Positions 1 through 5,459 of a DNA stretch of 7,115 nucleotides are shown here, piece after piece. How positions within the stretch are numbered: position 1 is the first letter of the stretch; every line of letters begins with the position of its first letter. The notes under the pieces were generated by a model that was not told the DNA's origin, made no database searches, and saw only the letters and a list, made by a program, of their open reading frames with translations. The position numbers and the translations under genes were made by a program. This stretch comes from a virus (taxonomy: Duplodnaviria; Heunggongvirae; Uroviricota; Caudoviricetes). Location: IMG/VR virus record IMGVR_UViG_2695420412_000015, one strand, 5' to 3'.

Positions 1-189
1 GGTGTGTCATACACCACGTCAGCGGTGGGGACGGGATACTGGTTACTGCAGCTGCTGGACAAAGTCTCTCCGTCCCAGTGGGTGGCAATAGGTGTACTGG
101 GGAGTCTGCTGTTTGGCCTGCTGACGTATCTGACTAACCTGTATTTCAAAATCAGGGAGGACCGCCGTAAGACGGCGCGGGGAGACTAA
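1..189 (+). CDS. S: Pinholin (phage 21 S-like holin), 5'-partial at window edge
   Basis: The translation ...[51 protein letters not shown] closely matches the C-terminal two thirds of phage 21 pinholin S21 as I remember it. The ORF is open to position 1, so the true start lies upstream of the window. Stop TAA at 187..189. A pinholin is the expected partner of the SAR-type endolysins downstream. Confidence 0.8.
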
Positions 190-193
190 AGCG

Positions 194-1183
194 ATGAAGA
201 AAAAATACGAACTGGTTGTTAAAGAGATAAATAATTACCCGGATAAGATTGCTGTTACTGTGGCACTTGAAATTGGCGGGCATCCGTCGTTGTTGTTGCC
301 ACATGTGGCGATTAGTCTTGACCGTACTGAAGGTGCCACGCTGGAGTTCTACGAAGCTGAGGCGAAAAAACAGGCGAAGCAGTTTTTCATGGATATTGTT
401 GCCGGGTTATGCGAAGGGGATGAACCGTCACCGGAAAAGCGCCCCGTAATTTTAGATGCGCAGGATGTATTGATAACCTACAAAGGAAAGCTACCGGGAA
501 GAATTACTTGTTCTCTGAAGATGCCGCCGTCAACACTGCGGTCAGAAAAAGATGATGTTGAATCGCGTATTGAAAAACTGGAGTGCTATATCGCTGAATT
601 GAAAAAAAGCACCCCAACAAAAAATGAGGTGCTTGCAGCAGACGAAATGAAAGAAGCTATTCCTGATCGCGCGGCGAATCTAAGCTGCGCTTCATGGTTG
701 AAAGAGCATCTTCAGCAGCCTGAAAAAAAACGCCGCGATGAGCAGTTTGCTGCGTTTTACGATTATTGCCGGAAAGTGATGAGCAGAAATCTCGCAGAGT
801 GTTTCAGTATTCATAATGATAATTTCAGTGACCTGGAATGGGAGTGTAACCGGCCATCCTTTGTTGTATCCGGTGATGCTGGGAAAATAACCATCTCAGA
901 AAATGGAAAAGTAACACCGCCATCGCACCAGCATAGTGAGGAGCTCATTGAATTTGCCATTGATTACCTGAAGAACAATAAAAAGCAGGGGCTGATGAAG
1001 TGCATTGGTCGTTGCATGGGATATCTGCAGATAGCTGCTGAGATTGAAGCGCTGGCCAGTGGTGCGGACAAGGATGCAGTTGTGCGGGAGGCTCTTCTTC
1101 GTGATTTTGATAATCCGCCCTTTAAAAAAGTGCCGGCTTACTGGTTTCATCCAGGACTGACTTATCTTAAAGGACGTATATAA
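194..1183 (+). CDS. 329-aa ORF: N-terminal DUF1327-like domain (residues 1-109) fused in frame to a ~220-aa C-terminal domain of unknown function
   Basis: ATG at 194, five nt after the holin stop. Residues 1-109 are co-linear with the 110-aa copy-B protein (2064..2396) and resemble the small protein family found beside lysis genes in lambdoid prophages (I recall this as YdfR/DUF1327; family name from memory, unverified). From codon 110 (ATG 521..523) the ORF continues through sequence absent from copy B to TAA 1181..1183. A 990-nt open frame is unlikely by chance; the only antisense ORF (896..1150) is short. Translation of the C-terminal part alone from ATG 521 (220 aa) is an alternative gene model. 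Confidence 0.7.
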   Translation: MKKKYELVVKEINNYPDKIAVTVALEIGGHPSLLLPHVAISLDRTEGATLEFYEAEAKKQAKQFFMDIVAGLCEGDEPSPEKRPVILDAQDVLITYKGKLPGRITCSLKMPPSTLRSEKDDVESRIEKLECYIAELKKSTPTKNEVLAADEMKEAIPDRAANLSCASWLKEHLQQPEKKRRDEQFAAFYDYCRKVMSRNLAECFSIHNDNFSDLEWECNRPSFVVSGDAGKITISENGKVTPPSHQHSEELIEFAIDYLKNNKKQGLMKCIGRCMGYLQIAAEIEALASGADKDAVVREALLRDFDNPPFKKVPAYWFHPGLTYLKGRI

Positions 1184-1225
1184 GCTGGCTCGTTATCTGT
1201 TGCCGATAAATCCTGATAAATATCC

Positions 1226-1759
1226 ATGAACACCAAAATCAAATACGGCCTGTCGGCTGCCGTTCTGGCGCTGATTGCCGCTGGTGCGCCTGCGCCTGAC
1301 ATTCTCGACCAGTTTCTGGATGAAAAGGAAGGTAACCACACCACGGCATACCGTGATGGTGCGGGGATCTGGACCATCTGCCGTGGTGCCATCATGGTGG
1401 ATGGTAAACCTGTTGTTCCAGGCATGAAGTTGTCGAAGGCAAAATGCGCTCAGGTTAACGCCATTGAGCGTAATAAGGCGCTGGCATGGGTGGAGAAAAA
1501 CATCAAAGTGCCATTGACCGAACCACAGAAAGCGGGGATTGCGTCATTCTGTCCGTACAACATTGGCCCCGGTAAGTGTTTCCCGTCGACGTTTTATAAA
1601 CGAATTAATGCAGGCGATCGCAGGGGGGCGTGTGAGGCGATTCGCTGGTGGATTAAGGACGGTGGCAGAGACTGCCGTATTCGCTCAAACAACTGTTACG
1701 GTCAGGTATCCCGTCGCGACCAGGAGAGTGCGCTGGCGTGCTGGGGAATTGACAGATAA
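1226..1759 (+). CDS. R: SAR endolysin (phage lysozyme, T4/P22 lysozyme-like GH24 fold), copy A
   Basis: 177 aa. The N-terminus MNTKIKYGLSAAVLALIAAGAPAP is a Gly/Ala-rich weakly hydrophobic signal-anchor-release type segment. The body carries lysozyme motifs (E...YRDGAGIWTICRG..., ...VPLTEPQKAGIASFCPYNIGPGKCF..STF.., ..WWIKDGG..) in the arrangement seen in P22 gp19 and phage 21 R. It sits directly downstream of the pinholin region. Confidence 0.9.
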   Translation: MNTKIKYGLSAAVLALIAAGAPAPDILDQFLDEKEGNHTTAYRDGAGIWTICRGAIMVDGKPVVPGMKLSKAKCAQVNAIERNKALAWVEKNIKVPLTEPQKAGIASFCPYNIGPGKCFPSTFYKRINAGDRRGACEAIRWWIKDGGRDCRIRSNNCYGQVSRRDQESALACWGIDR

Positions 1760-1853
1760 GCAGAATATTTTGCTGAAAAATGCGGTTTGCTCACACGGAC
1801 GGATAACACGAAATCCTGCGAACTGACAAAAACTAAGTGAATAAAAGTAAAAA

Positions 1854-1888
1854 CCCCGTTTGTTGGCTGCAAGCGGGGTTTTGTGTTT
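1854..1888 (+). terminator. Rho-independent terminator-like hairpin, copy A
   Basis: Stem CCCCGTTTG (1854..1862) pairs with CAAGCGGGG (1870..1878), with one G.U pair, around the 7-nt loop TTGGCTG, followed by TTTTGTGTTT. It is preceded by an A-run, so it could act in both directions. Conserved in copy B. Confidence 0.55.
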
Positions 1889-1918
1889 CCTGACTCTGGA
1901 AAAGTCAAAGGAGAAAGT

Positions 1919-2059
1919 GTGTTTGATTTTAGCAAACTGATTCGGGAGATTCGAGTGATGGCTGAAAAATTATCCACCTGGAAGTTCATTCTTATCTGGC
2001 TGGTGTTTGTGATTATGGCCTCCGGTTATTTCATCGGTCAGATACGACGGGGAGAGTAA
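1919..2059 (+). CDS. Small single-pass membrane protein ORF (46 aa from GTG 1919; 33 aa if ATG 1958 is used), copy A with chimeric 3' end
   Basis: AGGAG at 1910..1914 lies 4 nt before GTG 1919 (in copy B the AGGAG-to-GTG spacing is 5 nt); GGGAG at 1944..1948 precedes ATG 1958. Translation VFDFSKLIREIRVMAEKLSTWKFILIWLVFVIMASGYFIGQIRRGE* has one clear transmembrane segment. The copy at 3131..3268 differs in this segment only by synonymous changes, which argues for purifying selection. The last codons (RRGE*) look like the holin 3' end rather than copy B (RWW*). Confidence 0.45.
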   Translation: MFDFSKLIREIRVMAEKLSTWKFILIWLVFVIMASGYFIGQIRRGE

Positions 2060-2063
2060 AGCG

Positions 2064-2396
2064 ATGAAGAAAAAATACGAACTGGTTGTTAAAGGGATAA
2101 ATAATTACCCGGATAAGATTACTGTTACTGTGGCACTGGAAATTGGTGGGTATCCGTCACTGTTGTTGCCAGATGTGGCGATTAGTCTTGACCGTACTGA
2201 AGGAGCCACGCTGGAGTTTTACGAAGCTGAGGCGAAAAAGCAGGCGAAGCAGTTTTTCATGGATGTTGCTGCCGGGTTATGTGAAGGGGATGGTCCGTTG
2301 CCGGAAAAGCGGCCCATCATTTTAGAGGCGCAGGATGTGTTGATAATCTACAGAGGAAAACTACCGGGAATAATTACTGGTTCTCTGAAGACTTAA
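2064..2396 (+). CDS. DUF1327-like small lysis-region protein, 110 aa (copy B, unextended form)
   Basis: MKKKYELVVKGINNYPDKITVTVALEIGGYPSLLLPDVAISLDRTEGATLEFYEAEAKKQAKQFFMD... is co-linear with residues 1-109 of the 194..1183 ORF (about 14 aa substitutions by eye) and ends ...SLKT* at TAA 2394..2396. Same position relative to the endolysin as in copy A. Family name recalled from memory, unverified. Confidence 0.7.
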   Translation: MKKKYELVVKGINNYPDKITVTVALEIGGYPSLLLPDVAISLDRTEGATLEFYEAEAKKQAKQFFMDVAAGLCEGDGPLPEKRPIILEAQDVLIIYRGKLPGIITGSLKT

Positions 2397-2438
2397 CATA
2401 TCCAGGGATTTGAAATCGATAAACCCTGATAAATATCC

Positions 2439-2972
2439 ATGAACACCAAAATCAAATACGGCCTGTCGGCTGCCGTTCTGGCGCTGATTGCCGCAGGTGC
2501 GCCTGCGCCTGAAATCCTCGACCAGTTTCTGGATGAAAAGGAAGGTAACCACACCACGGCATACCGTGATGGTGCGGGTATCTGGACCATCTGCCGTGGA
2601 GCCACCCGGGTGGATGGTAAGCCTGTCCTCCCGGGCATGAAGTTGTCGAAGGAAAAATGCGACCAGGTTAACGCCATTGAACGTGATAAGGCGCTGGCAT
2701 GGGTGGCGAAAAACATCAGAGTGCCACTGACCGAACCCCAGAAAGCGGGTATTGCGTCATTCTGTCCGTACAACATTGGTCCCGGTAAGTGTTTCCCGTC
2801 TACGTTTTACAGACGAATTAATGCAGGTGATCGAAAAGGTGCCTGCGAAGCGATTCGCTGGTGGATTAAGGACGGTGGCAGAGACTGCCGTATTCGTTCA
2901 AACAACTGTTACGGTCAGGTATCCCGTCGTGACCAGGAGAGCGCGCTGGCGTGCTGGGGAATTGACAGATAA
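2439..2972 (+). CDS. R: SAR endolysin (phage lysozyme), copy B
   Basis: 177 aa, co-linear with copy A and differing at about 11 residues by manual count (e.g. AIMVDGKPVV versus ATRVDGKPVL; KAKCAQ versus KEKCDQ). Intact ORF with the same N-terminal SAR-like segment. Confidence 0.9.
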   Translation: MNTKIKYGLSAAVLALIAAGAPAPEILDQFLDEKEGNHTTAYRDGAGIWTICRGATRVDGKPVLPGMKLSKEKCDQVNAIERDKALAWVAKNIRVPLTEPQKAGIASFCPYNIGPGKCFPSTFYRRINAGDRKGACEAIRWWIKDGGRDCRIRSNNCYGQVSRRDQESALACWGIDR

Positions 2973-3065
2973 GCAGAATATTTTGCTGAAAAATGCGGTT
3001 TGCTCACACGGGCGGATAACACGAAATCCTGCGAACTGGCAAAAACTAAGTGAATAAAAGTAAAA

Positions 3066-3100
3066 CCCCGTTTGTTGGCCGCAAGCGGGGTTTTGTGTTT
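3066..3100 (+). terminator. Rho-independent terminator-like hairpin, copy B
   Basis: Stem CCCCGTTTG (3066..3074), loop TTGGCCG, stem CAAGCGGGG (3082..3090), then TTTTGTGTTT (3091..3100). The stem is identical to copy A; the loop differs by one base. Confidence 0.55.
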
Positions 3101-3130
3101 CCTGACTCCGGAAAAGTCAAAGGAGAAAGT

Positions 3131-3268
3131 GTGTTTGATTTTAGCAAACTGATTCGGGAGATTCGAATGATGGCTGAAAAATTATCCACCTGGAAGTTCA
3201 TCCTTATCTGGCTGGTGTTTGTGATTATGGCTTCCGGTTATTTCATTGGTCAGATACGCTGGTGGTGA
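3131..3268 (+). CDS. Small single-pass membrane protein ORF (45 aa from GTG 3131; 33 aa from ATG 3167), copy B
   Basis: AGGAG at 3121..3125 lies 5 nt before GTG 3131; GGGAG at 3156..3160 lies 6 nt before ATG 3167. Translation ...MMAEKLSTWKFILIWLVFVIMASGYFIGQIRWW*; stop TGA 3266..3268 is immediately followed by the Rz ATG at 3270. The track ORF starting at 3050 would run through the terminator hairpin, so I prefer a downstream start. Confidence 0.45.
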   Translation: MFDFSKLIREIRMMAEKLSTWKFILIWLVFVIMASGYFIGQIRWW

Positions 3269-3269
3269 A

Positions 3270-3737
3270 ATGAACCGCGTACTGTGCGTGGTCATCATTG
3301 CCCTGCTGGTGGCCTGTGGTGCGCTTAGTCTGGGGCTGAATCATTACCGTGATAACGCCATAACCTACAAAGAGCAGCGCGATAAAAAAGTCAGTGAGCT
3401 GGAGCTGGCAAATGCAACCATTACTGATATGCAGGTGCGCCAGCGCGATGTTGCTGCGCTCGATGCAAAATACTCGAGGGAATTAGCCGATGCGAGAGCT
3501 GAAAATGAAACTCTGCGTGCTGATGTTGCCGCTGGTCGTAAGCGCCTGCGGATCAACGCCACCTGCTCCGGTACCGTGCGTGAAGCCACCGGCACCTCCG
3601 GAATGGATAATGCAACCGGCCCCCGACTGGCAGACACCGCTGAACGGGATTATTTCACCCTCAGAGAGCGGTTGATGACAATGCAGAAGCAACTGGAAGG
3701 GGCACAGGACTATATCCGCACTCAGTGCCTGAAATAA
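3270..3737 (+). CDS. Rz: Rz i-spanin (inner-membrane spanin subunit)
   Basis: [40 protein letters not shown]...[31 protein letters not shown]...[35 protein letters not shown] is co-linear with lambda Rz as I recall it ([20 protein letters not shown]...[19 protein letters not shown]). I place the start at ATG 3270 rather than the track's 3246, matching the lambda Rz N-terminus. Confidence 0.9.
   Translation: [155 protein letters not shown]
3490..3675 (+). CDS. Rz1: Rz1 o-spanin (outer-membrane lipoprotein spanin subunit), embedded in the +1 frame of Rz
   Basis: MRELKMKLCVLMLPLVVSACGSTPPAPVPCVKPPAPPEWIMQPAPDWQTPLNGIISPSESG parallels lambda Rz1 (..LPLVVVGC...CVKPPPPPAWIMQPPPDWQTPLNGIISPSERG). 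It has a lipobox (VVSAC) and a proline-rich body. Lying wholly inside Rz in another frame is the classic arrangement. The true start may be the internal Met (MKLCV...). Confidence 0.85.
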   Translation: MRELKMKLCVLMLPLVVSACGSTPPAPVPCVKPPAPPEWIMQPAPDWQTPLNGIISPSESG

Positions 3738-4087
3738 GTTTTGTTGATGCGCCGTATCGTCGCTGTATTCCCTCATTAACAGAGACCGCAGCCCGACAGG
3801 GAGACTCCTCTGCGCGAGTGTGCGGGGATAATCAAAAACGATACACACCGGGGTTTACCGCGTTAACGGAGCGCGGCGTTGTCCCCTCATAGTCGCCTGT
3901 CCGGTGCGATGGTGGAAGAAGCCGGATGTTTATCACTATTAATTGATGACACAGAAATGGATTCATTGAATTTCAGCACGTTTTTGTATTCGTGTTATTG
4001 AACATCTGTTTATTTTACTTTTAACATATTGATAATAAAAAGAGCTGTAAATCTTTAGATGAGTCGATTTTGTCCGGGGAAGTTCAA

Positions 4088-4237
4088 ATGGATTTTATGC
4101 TGACGGTTTCTGGTGTGGTTATCCTGTCCATTGCTTATACTGCAGATAAATATGGCTGCCATTTGTTATCACGTATTGGCGCTTATTGTTCGTTGATGCT
4201 GATTTTCTCGTCGCTTTTTTTTATTTTTTTTGAGTAA
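4088..4237 (+). CDS. Hypothetical 49-aa hydrophobic peptide ORF (not in the supplied track, below its length cutoff)
   Basis: ATG 4088 is preceded by GGGGAAG with a 5-nt spacer. My manual translation is MDFMLTVSGVVILSIAYTADKYGCHLLSRIGAYCSLMLIFSSLFFIFFE*. It is strongly hydrophobic, AT-rich, ends in a T-run, and has atypical codon usage, so it may not be a real gene. Confidence 0.2.
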   Translation: MDFMLTVSGVVILSIAYTADKYGCHLLSRIGAYCSLMLIFSSLFFIFFE

Positions 4238-4369: not shown

Positions 4370-4555
4370 TTACTTAATTATGTAATTCATACCCGAACTC
4401 TCTGTTGACAGCCTTCTTCTGCAGGCTTCAATAACCCACGCTGAAAAGTTTCCTGAACCTTTCAGGTCAAGAGCGATGTTAATTTGTTCAATTATCTGGT
4501 TTGGAAATCGGATGTTGCGGGTTGTTGTTCTGCGGGTTCTGTTCTTTGATGACAT
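4370..4555 (-). CDS. Hypothetical small ribbon-helix-helix-like DNA-binding protein (61 aa)
   Basis: Minus-strand ORF MSSKNRTRRTTTRNIRFPNQIIEQINIALDLKGSGNFSAWVIEACRRRLSTESSGMNYIIK. It has a basic N-terminus, then a beta-strand-like IRFP segment, a helix, a GSG turn and a second helix (NFSAWVIEACRRRL), which is the Arc/Mnt/CopG-type layout. Its position between the spanin genes and a Nu1 homologue recalls small ORFs such as ylcI upstream of nohD in E. coli cryptic prophages (from memory, unverified). No strong Shine-Dalgarno sequence seen. Confidence 0.4.
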   Translation of the reverse strand: MSSKNRTRRTTTRNIRFPNQIIEQINIALDLKGSGNFSAWVIEACRRRLSTESSGMNYIIK

Positions 4556-4754
4556 AATGTTGCCCCGTATTCAGTGTTGCTGATTTGTATTATCTGAAGT
4601 TGCTTTTACGCTAATTTGATGCAGATCAATTAATACGATACCTGCGTCATAATTGATTATTTGACGTGGTTTGATGGCGTAGATGCACGTTGTGACATGT
4701 AGATGATAATTATTATCATTTTGCGGGTCCTTTCCGGCGATCCGACAGGTTACG

Positions 4755-4766
4755 GGGCGGCGACCT
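4755..4766. other. cosN: cosN: 12-nt cohesive-end sequence GGGCGGCGACCT (terminase nicking site)
   Basis: 4721..4754 (TTGCGGGTCCTTTCCGGCGATCCGACAGGTTACG) matches the right end of phage lambda DNA as I recall it. 4755..~4799 (GGGCGGCGACCTCGCGGGTTTTCGCTATTTATGAAAATTTTCCGG) matches the lambda left end; the sequence diverges after that. The segment just upstream (about 4700..4754) should contain cosQ. Confidence 0.85.
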
Positions 4767-4949: not shown

Positions 4950-5459
4950 GTGGCTACGCAGACTGAAGTTGCCAGGCATTTAAGTCTGACCGATCGCCAG
5001 CTTCGCAGATTGCAGAAATTGCCGGGTGCCCCGATATCGAATAAGCGAGGGCAACTGGATCTGGATGCCTGGCGCGATTTTTACATATCGTATCTGAGGA
5101 GAAGTAAAAACGATGTGCCTGATGGCGATAGCGAAGACGACTATGAGGAGAAATTGCTTATTGCCAGATGGGAACTGACAGCAGAACAGGCTGTTACACA
5201 GCAGTTAAAAAATGAGGTGTCAAAAGGAAAACTTATTGACACCGGGTTCTGTATTTTTGCCCTCAGTAAGCTGGCAATGGCGTTATCCAGTACGCTTGAT
5301 TCCATCCCTTTATCCATGCAGCGACAGTTTCCTGATTTAACACCGCGCCATCTTGACCATCTGAAAACCCTTATTGCGAAGGGGGCAAATCAGTGTGCGC
5401 GGGCAGGGGATAAATTACCGGATTTACTCGATGAATATATCAGAGCAACAACTGAATAA
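4950..5459 (+). CDS. nu1: Terminase small subunit (lambda Nu1 / E. coli NohA/NohD family)
   Basis: GTG start at 4950 after AGGTGAGGA. The C-terminal half (..TGFCIFALSKLAMALSSTLDSIPLSMQRQFPDLTPRHLDHLKTLIAKG...LPDLLDEYI) is co-linear with lambda Nu1 (..TAFCTFVLSRIAGEIASILDGLPLSVQRRFPELENRHVDFLKRDIIKA...IPGLLSEYI). The N-terminal HTH-like region (EVARHLSLTDRQLRRLQKLPGAP) is diverged. Stop TAA at 5457..5459. Confidence 0.9.
   Translation: MATQTEVARHLSLTDRQLRRLQKLPGAPISNKRGQLDLDAWRDFYISYLRRSKNDVPDGDSEDDYEEKLLIARWELTAEQAVTQQLKNEVSKGKLIDTGFCIFALSKLAMALSSTLDSIPLSMQRQFPDLTPRHLDHLKTLIAKGANQCARAGDKLPDLLDEYIRATTE

Follow-up and report, generated by a model that had tools for sequence, protein, structure and literature searches.

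The window, by which we mean the whole 7,115-nt stretch of caudoviral DNA analyzed here (IMG/VR record IMGVR_UViG_2695420412_000015), carries lysis genes, the cohesive-end site cosN and a terminase small subunit gene. At 4370..4555 on its minus strand lies a 61-codon ORF with an ATG start, as originally predicted, and its product is the 61-aa protein MSSKNRTRRTTTRNIRFPNQIIEQINIALDLKGSGNFSAWVIEACRRRLSTESSGMNYIIK. The ORF listing, Pfam matches and the sequence confirm that this ORF runs antisense to the late genes, between Rz/Rz1 and cosN with its Nu1-like gene, and that the surrounding interval is AT-rich (GC 0.34-0.44 vs. 0.48-0.58 in the flanks). We refer to the gene as ylcI, after the family to which it belongs. 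The features of the locus, with the basis for each in brackets, are as follows.

3246..3737, plus strand: Rz spanin, the end of the lysis cassette (Pfam Phage_lysis)
3490-3675: Rz1, embedded in Rz (Pfam Rz1)
4070..4237, plus strand: convergent small hydrophobic ORF (orf55), 55 aa (ORF listing; RefSeq, as a hypothetical protein of 45 aa)
4370..4555, minus strand: ylcI/ynfO-family CDS, 61 aa (ORF, Pfam, NCBIfam, PHROG, RefSeq orthologue, purifying selection)
4370-4372, minus strand: ylcI stop codon
4373..4405, minus strand: variable C-terminal tail, STESSGMNYIIK allele (allele comparison)
4406..4555, minus strand: conserved domain, codons 1-50 (family alignments, AF2 model, hhalign to the Arc family)
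4556..4754: conserved non-coding stretch from the ylcI start to cosN (diversity)
4563..4566, minus strand: GGGG, a possible weak Shine-Dalgarno sequence for ylcI, 7 nt 5' of its ATG (from a reading of the sequence alone)
4625..4657: inverted repeat ATCAATTAATACG / CGTCATAATTGAT, a candidate operator 70-102 bp upstream of the ATG (repeat search)
4755..4766, plus strand: 12-nt cohesive-end sequence of cosN, GGGCGGCGACCT (sequence; aligned with the lambda right-left end join)
4950..5459, plus strand: Nu1-like terminase small subunit, divergent from ylcI across cos (Pfam Phage_Nu1, RefSeq)

The size of the ylcI ORF is unremarkable in itself, as the window contains 73 ORFs of at least 30 aa; we consider it real because it is conserved. 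It had been described as the only sizeable ORF in the interval, which is wrong, since a second conserved ORF (orf55, 4070-4237 on the plus strand) converges on it. The orf55 product looks like two transmembrane segments and had no family match in Pfam, NCBIfam, PHROG or PADLOC. Across 48 loci this ORF is 98-100% identical, and it accompanies the 61-aa ylcI allele whether the packaging genes are of the lambda-cos or the HNH/TerS kind. A 37-aa GTG-start ORF upstream of the lambda ylcI was dismissed, as it is not open in the window.

On the lysis side, positions 178-3258 form a diverged tandem duplication, in which 178-477 pairs with 2048-2347 (92%), 1204-1503 with 2417-2716 (93%) and 1850-2046 with 3062-3258 (97%). 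A full DUF1327 gene (194-1183) and a lysozyme gene (1226-1759) come first; in the part that follows, DUF1327 is truncated (2064-2396) and the second lysozyme gene lies at 2439-2972.

Family identity and distribution

The ORF at 4370..4555 is a genuine gene of the already catalogued but uncharacterized YlcI/YnfO (DUF3950) family. A Pfam search, suggested together with the original prediction, places the protein in DUF3950 (PF13132) with an E-value of 6.6e-18 and 64.7 bits, above the curated cutoff of 25. It also matches NCBIfam NF041551 (YlcI_YnfO_N) with 35.1 bits (cutoff 30) and PHROG 949, which is itself of unknown function. The RefSeq orthologue is named "YlcI/YnfO family protein" and lies between a lysis protein and the terminase small subunit. 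Thus, the original prediction was right to point to an uncharacterized family of small proteins whose genes precede Nu1 homologues in cryptic prophages of E. coli; it is that of YlcI (DLP12) and YnfO (Qin). The first ~50 residues are about 88% identical to those of K-12 YlcI (b4589) and YnfO (b4533), and the place between the lysis genes and a Nu1 homologue (nohD/nohA in K-12) and the orientation against the late genes are the same. The C-terminal tail differs (61 aa here vs. 64 and 77 aa), as does the downstream neighbor, which is orf55 here vs. ybcW/ybcV/bor or ydfO in K-12. We found no functional study of YlcI, YnfO or DUF3950 in the literature.

The gene is common in E. coli and its phages. 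DNA corresponding to 3900-4950 matches 4633 of 5426 complete E. coli genomes, at a median of two places per genome, and ylcI-type genes occur in 151 phage records, among them those of 434, HK629/630 and many Stx phages. Phage lambda encodes an intact 64-aa homologue at 48109..48303 on the minus strand (3110-3304, minus strand, in our lambda locus L002), which is without annotation in both reference records (NC_001416 and J02459, our L164); several lambda-like records label the lambda-type copy a hypothetical protein.

Overall, the family is small and confined to Enterobacterales. At E <1e-3, only 100 clusters (50% identity) were found among 1.8 billion representatives, many of them frameshifted copies of control DNA that make the family look more diverse, and a profile search of a 5.8-billion-protein set recovered DUF3950 proteins only, among the 120 matches listed. 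Genuine diverged members, with 35-60% identity, occur in Salmonella, Klebsiella, Enterobacter, Serratia, Pectobacterium, Xenorhabdus, Proteus and others. Alignment of 22 diverse members shows I15, R16, I25, F37, W40, V41 and C45 to be invariant and F17, N36, S38, A39 and A44 to be at least 90% conserved. The family motifs IRF and NFSAWV..AC are both present in the first ~50 residues of the 61-aa protein.

We also considered a hypervariable C-terminal tail. This proved to be largely an artefact, as many of the variants are frameshifted lambda control DNA from nanopore sequencing. Genuine prophage alleles encode 50, 61, 64, 65, 66, 74 or 77 aa, with tails that are unrelated after about residue 50, so that about seven length classes still stand; at the DNA level, homology of ylcI to other prophages ends near codon 47-52. 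Lambda right-end DNA was found on ~3.5-kb or 48.5-kb contigs assigned to unrelated taxa such as Kitasatospora, Cohnella, Staphylococcus, Pedobacter and others (L006-L038, L061 and L066, with many ENA proteins, e.g., P0044-P0069), which is consistent with contamination by sequencing control DNA.

Purifying selection and conserved position

The gene is under purifying selection and its place is conserved. The original prediction depended on ylcI being an intact ORF in related prophages, and the ATG plus at least 50 codons are intact in 91 of 91 related lambda-type loci. Over codons 1-50, polymorphic sites among the 20 distinct alleles number 9 at first, 5 at second and 30 at third codon positions, and pN/pS is 0.098; between the window and lambda ylcI, dN is 0.054 and dS 0.88. 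Nucleotide diversity at the three codon positions is 0.022, 0.012 and 0.130, compared with 0.059 in the upstream non-coding stretch (4556..4754) and zero among the compared loci in the cosN sequence (4755-4766).

The edges of homology between prophages tell the same about the ORF. Some homology blocks extend from cos to about codon 47, whereas others run from the ATG downstream only, or cover codons 1-52 only; because homology in some phages starts at the ATG or spans codons 1-52 only, the ORF itself is conserved, beyond the neighboring cos. In some loci the cos side is replaced altogether, and the neighbor, 41 bp away and divergent from ylcI, is a module of an HNH endonuclease, a Terminase_2-type small subunit and a large terminase. 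The order of lysis genes, antisense ylcI and packaging genes, which is also that of lambda, 434, HK629/630 and Stx phages, is therefore kept with two unrelated packaging modules (lambda Nu1/cos and HNH plus Terminase_2), so the conservation of ylcI is not a by-product of cos.

These data bear on the alternative that the ORF is no gene and is open by chance inside DNA conserved for cos function. The neighboring non-coding DNA is likewise conserved and the lambda reference records lack the ORF, as such an explanation would have it; however, third codon positions are six to ten times more variable than first and second positions, pN/pS is low and all 91 loci are intact, the ORF is conserved alone where the cos-side flank has been swapped, and homologues with 35-60% identity are spread across Enterobacterales. 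The codon-position pattern and the ORF-only homology blocks together refute this alternative, whose probability we regard as negligible.

The genes around ylcI vary from prophage to prophage. Beside the 61-aa allele, orf55 is convergent; beside the lambda/DLP12 allele, ybcW is convergent, followed by ybcV (DUF1398) and bor. In DLP12 (L003 3185-4446) and lambda, ylcI shares its direction with the DUF1398 gene (ybcV / lambdap78) and with bor, and the opposite-strand ybcW / lambdap79 lies between ylcI and the DUF1398 gene. In Qin of K-12 (L165 5257-5958), the DUF1398 gene ydfO is co-directional and follows 57 bp after ynfO. This arrangement of ylcI and DUF1398 genes hints at an ancestral leftward accessory operon.

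With its deviant GC content, mosaic boundaries at the ORF ends and varying downstream partners, ylcI has moron-like traits. Like the lambda morons bor and lom, prophage-expressed genes that are antisense to the late operon or independent of it, it is an AT-rich insertion at the lysis-packaging junction that runs opposite to the late genes, and it is variably linked to bor in lambda and DLP12. On the other hand, bor and lom encode outer-membrane proteins, whereas the ylcI product is a putative DNA-binding protein.

Small proteins with ribbon-helix-helix-like features, such as those described in the next section, may also be antitoxins, and the original prediction had raised this reading. YlcI could then be an antitoxin, either within a type II toxin-antitoxin pair or as an orphan. 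The protein does have one weak match to a HicB-like PHROG (phrog_497, E 0.0098), and the upstream neighbor is a HicA toxin gene at one distant locus and a SymE toxin gene at another. Against this, a search of the neighborhood for a partner toxin came out negative: no co-directional ORF of at least 30 aa follows ylcI within the window, and the neighbors are convergent or divergent and differ between prophages. Pfam, NCBIfam and PADLOC yielded no antitoxin family. As a co-directional partner gene is absent, the antitoxin reading is disfavored, and we consider it very improbable.

A putative ribbon-helix-helix domain

The original prediction assigned the protein a ribbon-helix-helix (RHH) layout. 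This claim is moderately supported: structure prediction gives an extended segment followed by two helices, and there is an in-register profile match to the Arc family; support from Pfam RHH families, the PDB or fold searches was not obtained. The AF2 monomer model, built with the family alignment, has an extended basic N-terminus (residues 13-18 extended) and two helices at residues 19-32 and 37-55, with a mean pLDDT of 72 and 84-88 in the core. In this model the order of elements is that expected of one chain in an RHH dimer, although a strand as such could be assigned in a dimer only. Along the conserved domain, the predicted elements are the basic tail, the putative beta-strand NIRF (14-17), helix A (19-32), the GSGN loop and helix B (37-55). 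Among the 22 diverse members, indels are restricted to the inter-helix loop.

To compare the family with known RHH proteins, the domain profile was aligned with hhalign to a profile of 81 non-redundant Arc/Mnt/AmrZ sequences (Pfam Arc family). The score was 20.4-20.5 over 42-43 columns (P 6-8e-4, probability 29%). By comparison, 150 column shuffles of the domain profile scored 9.1 on average (sd 1.9, maximum 15.5), which places the real score 5.9 sd above them, and the reversed domain profile scored 13.3. The single sequences of Arc, NikR-N, AmrZ and Mnt also scored above all eight unrelated controls. The alignment sets T12, N14, R16 and P18 of YlcI onto Q9, N11, R13 and P15 of Arc. Of these Arc residues, Q9, N11 and R13 contact the bases in the complex with the operator. 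None of the 22 diverse members matched a Pfam RHH family, even with E-values as high as 5 allowed, searches of the PDB by sequence and by profile, using the protein and two family alignments, gave chance matches only, and fold searches with the monomer model returned no useful match to solved RHH proteins.

Compared with Arc and Mnt of phage P22 and with AmrZ (PF03869), YlcI is of similar size and has a basic N-terminus, the same strand-helix-loop-helix order and an aligned x-N-h-R-h-P motif (N14/R16/P18 with Arc N11/R13/P15); like them it is encoded by phages or mobile elements and may be a small regulator. It differs in that the similarity is below family level (hhalign probability 29%, no Pfam Arc match), the inter-helix loop is longer and helix B carries the distinctive NFSAWV..AC motif. 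Taken together, the profile alignment and the model suggest that the first ~50 residues of YlcI are probably an RHH domain.

A helical hairpin could also serve as a two-helix protein-protein adaptor rather than a DNA-binding regulator. YlcI might then modulate a host or phage factor and act in exclusion or anti-defence, and may partner the neighboring small membrane ORF or the DUF1398 proteins. However, the alignment to the Arc family is in register and scores far above the shuffles. A strongly basic N-terminal tail and an invariant R16 are consistent with DNA binding, distant homologues have operator-like repeats upstream (see below), and PADLOC gave no defence-system match. We therefore regard an adaptor role as unlikely.

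Upstream DNA, satellite homologues and the proposed role

If YlcI binds DNA, the region upstream of its own gene is where its targets may lie. The conserved stretch between the ylcI start and cosN presumably contains the ylcI promoter, and we take it to include cosQ. The inverted repeat at 4625-4657 has an identical sequence in the window, lambda and DLP12 and a single change in strain D1, and nucleotide diversity falls to 0.024 at 4631-4650, below that of the upstream region as a whole. This makes the repeat a candidate operator. No canonical minus-strand sigma-70 promoter for ylcI was found in the upstream region, and Rfam detected no RNA family in the window. For K-12, PMC12288877 lists ybcW and ylcI as convergent genes whose transcripts overlap in at least 50% of RNA-seq samples, which indicates transcription from a silent cryptic prophage.

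The same region also contains, at 4705-4723 on the minus strand, a 19-mer that matches the Fur-box consensus GATAATGATAATCATTATC at 16 of 19 positions, a match equaled by none of 200 shuffles. It lies just left of cosQ/cosN, has a counterpart in lambda at 48447-48465 on the plus strand (L002 3448-3466), and overlaps a plus-strand promoter-like site (GTGACA-16-TATCAT, 4692-4719). A palindrome is present at 4702-4717.

Distant homologues of YlcI, which are not beside terminase or lysis genes, are found in a different setting. Most are in satellites of the P4-like/PICI type (see PMC13612085), flanked by an integrase or AntA gene on one side and a D5/DUF927-type primase gene on the other, and a few are in other islands. 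For example, in Salmonella enterica subsp. diarizonae and arizonae (L043 and L044, respectively; 3995-4171), a DUF3950 homologue of 58 aa is encoded between the genes for an IpgD/SopB-type effector and a C69 peptidase, an SPI-5-like setting outside any recognizable prophage. The upstream neighbor is on the opposite strand in 30 of 32 distant loci. Pairs of 11-mer repeats (at most one mismatch, 12-45 bp apart) occur in 21 of the 32 distinct distant upstream regions, compared with 11% of control windows from the same loci (binomial P 2e-13, although the loci are related and the true significance is lower). In the satellites the repeats are two or three palindromes, GGTG-N6-CACC or, in another subgroup, GGTA-N2-TACC, spaced ~25-33 bp apart (L045 3880-4000; L073 3895-4000; L049/L062 about 3875-4000; L068/L078 about 3915-4000). 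In two of the three loci scanned, the palindromes overlap a divergent promoter-like site (TTGACG-18-TATGGT/TAGATT). The TTGACG-18-TATGGT site points toward the primase operon.

Judged from the arrangement of genes and repeats, this layout fits a small repressor that controls a divergent operon as well as itself. It resembles that of the divergently transcribed master repressors of satellites and temperate phages (e.g., Stl of SaPIs, CI/Cro-type switches), in that the distant ylcI homologues are lone genes divergent from an operon of small ORFs and a primase, with two or three palindromes placed over the divergent promoter-like site. The distant YlcI homologues have no sequence relationship to these repressors, would be RHH rather than HTH proteins, and their putative role is read from gene layout. 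Another difference is that the divergent partner of ylcI in the window is the cos/Nu1 region, for which we know of no promoter of its own.

The position of ylcI invites yet another explanation, that the protein is a packaging or cos accessory that binds near cos or the terminase genes and affects cos cleavage, packaging termination or the packaging of competing elements. In phages and prophages ylcI is always directly beside a packaging module, of either type; a constrained intergenic region of 200 bp separates it from cosN, homologues occur in satellites that hijack packaging, and one homologue (P0191) is joined to a terminase segment. This last protein, of 129 aa, consists of a DUF3950 domain followed by the N-terminal, DNA-binding segment of a Terminase_2 small terminase subunit (E 1.7e-6) and could be a natural fusion or a gene-calling artefact. 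However, ylcI is antisense to the late operon and so would not be co-expressed with the packaging genes, and the distant homologues lie beside primase, AntA, integrase, chromosomal or SPI-5-like genes instead of terminases. In addition, the Rz-cos region of lambda is dispensable for plaque formation. A packaging function thus seems improbable, more so than an adaptor role.

The reading that we favor, with a probability of roughly 0.55, is that ylcI is a functional YlcI/YnfO-family gene, moron-like and expressed in the prophage state, whose product is a small RHH-domain repressor or autoregulator. The RHH fold is moderately supported. According to this proposal, ylcI would be a moron-like insertion of one gene that separates the lysis cassette from the packaging genes and is transcribed against the late operon, and YlcI would be made in the prophage state, independently of late transcription. 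In a dimer, the N-terminal strands (NIRF) of the two chains would join as a beta-ribbon and read the DNA from its major groove; N14 and the invariant R16 would occupy the positions of the base-contacting N11 and R13 of Arc, and the basic tail would add contacts to the DNA backbone. The dimer would then repress its own upstream region and/or a neighboring, divergent promoter.

A broader reading, which we put forward as speculative and give well below even odds, is that YlcI/YnfO proteins form a distinct, unrecognized clade of RHH repressors that includes both master repressors of satellite primase operons and an overlooked regulator beside cos in lambdoid prophages. In satellites these proteins might act at the GGTG-N6-CACC or GGTA-N2-TACC operators. 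In lambdoid prophages the targets might be the ybcV-bor accessory promoter or leaky transcription into the packaging genes. If this were true, phage lambda would still carry an unannotated, functional regulator gene.

The gene is already catalogued and present in most E. coli genomes, and calling it in this window adds nothing new. What is added here is the evidence for purifying selection, a link of moderate confidence to Arc-type RHH proteins, the unannotated lambda copy and the repressor-like architecture of the satellite homologues. It is the function that would matter, as the family is strongly selected and present in lambda, and yet omitted from its reference annotation. If an RHH regulator were confirmed, two K-12 y-genes would acquire a function, the lambda map would gain a regulator, and a group of phage satellites in enterobacteria would have a candidate immunity repressor.
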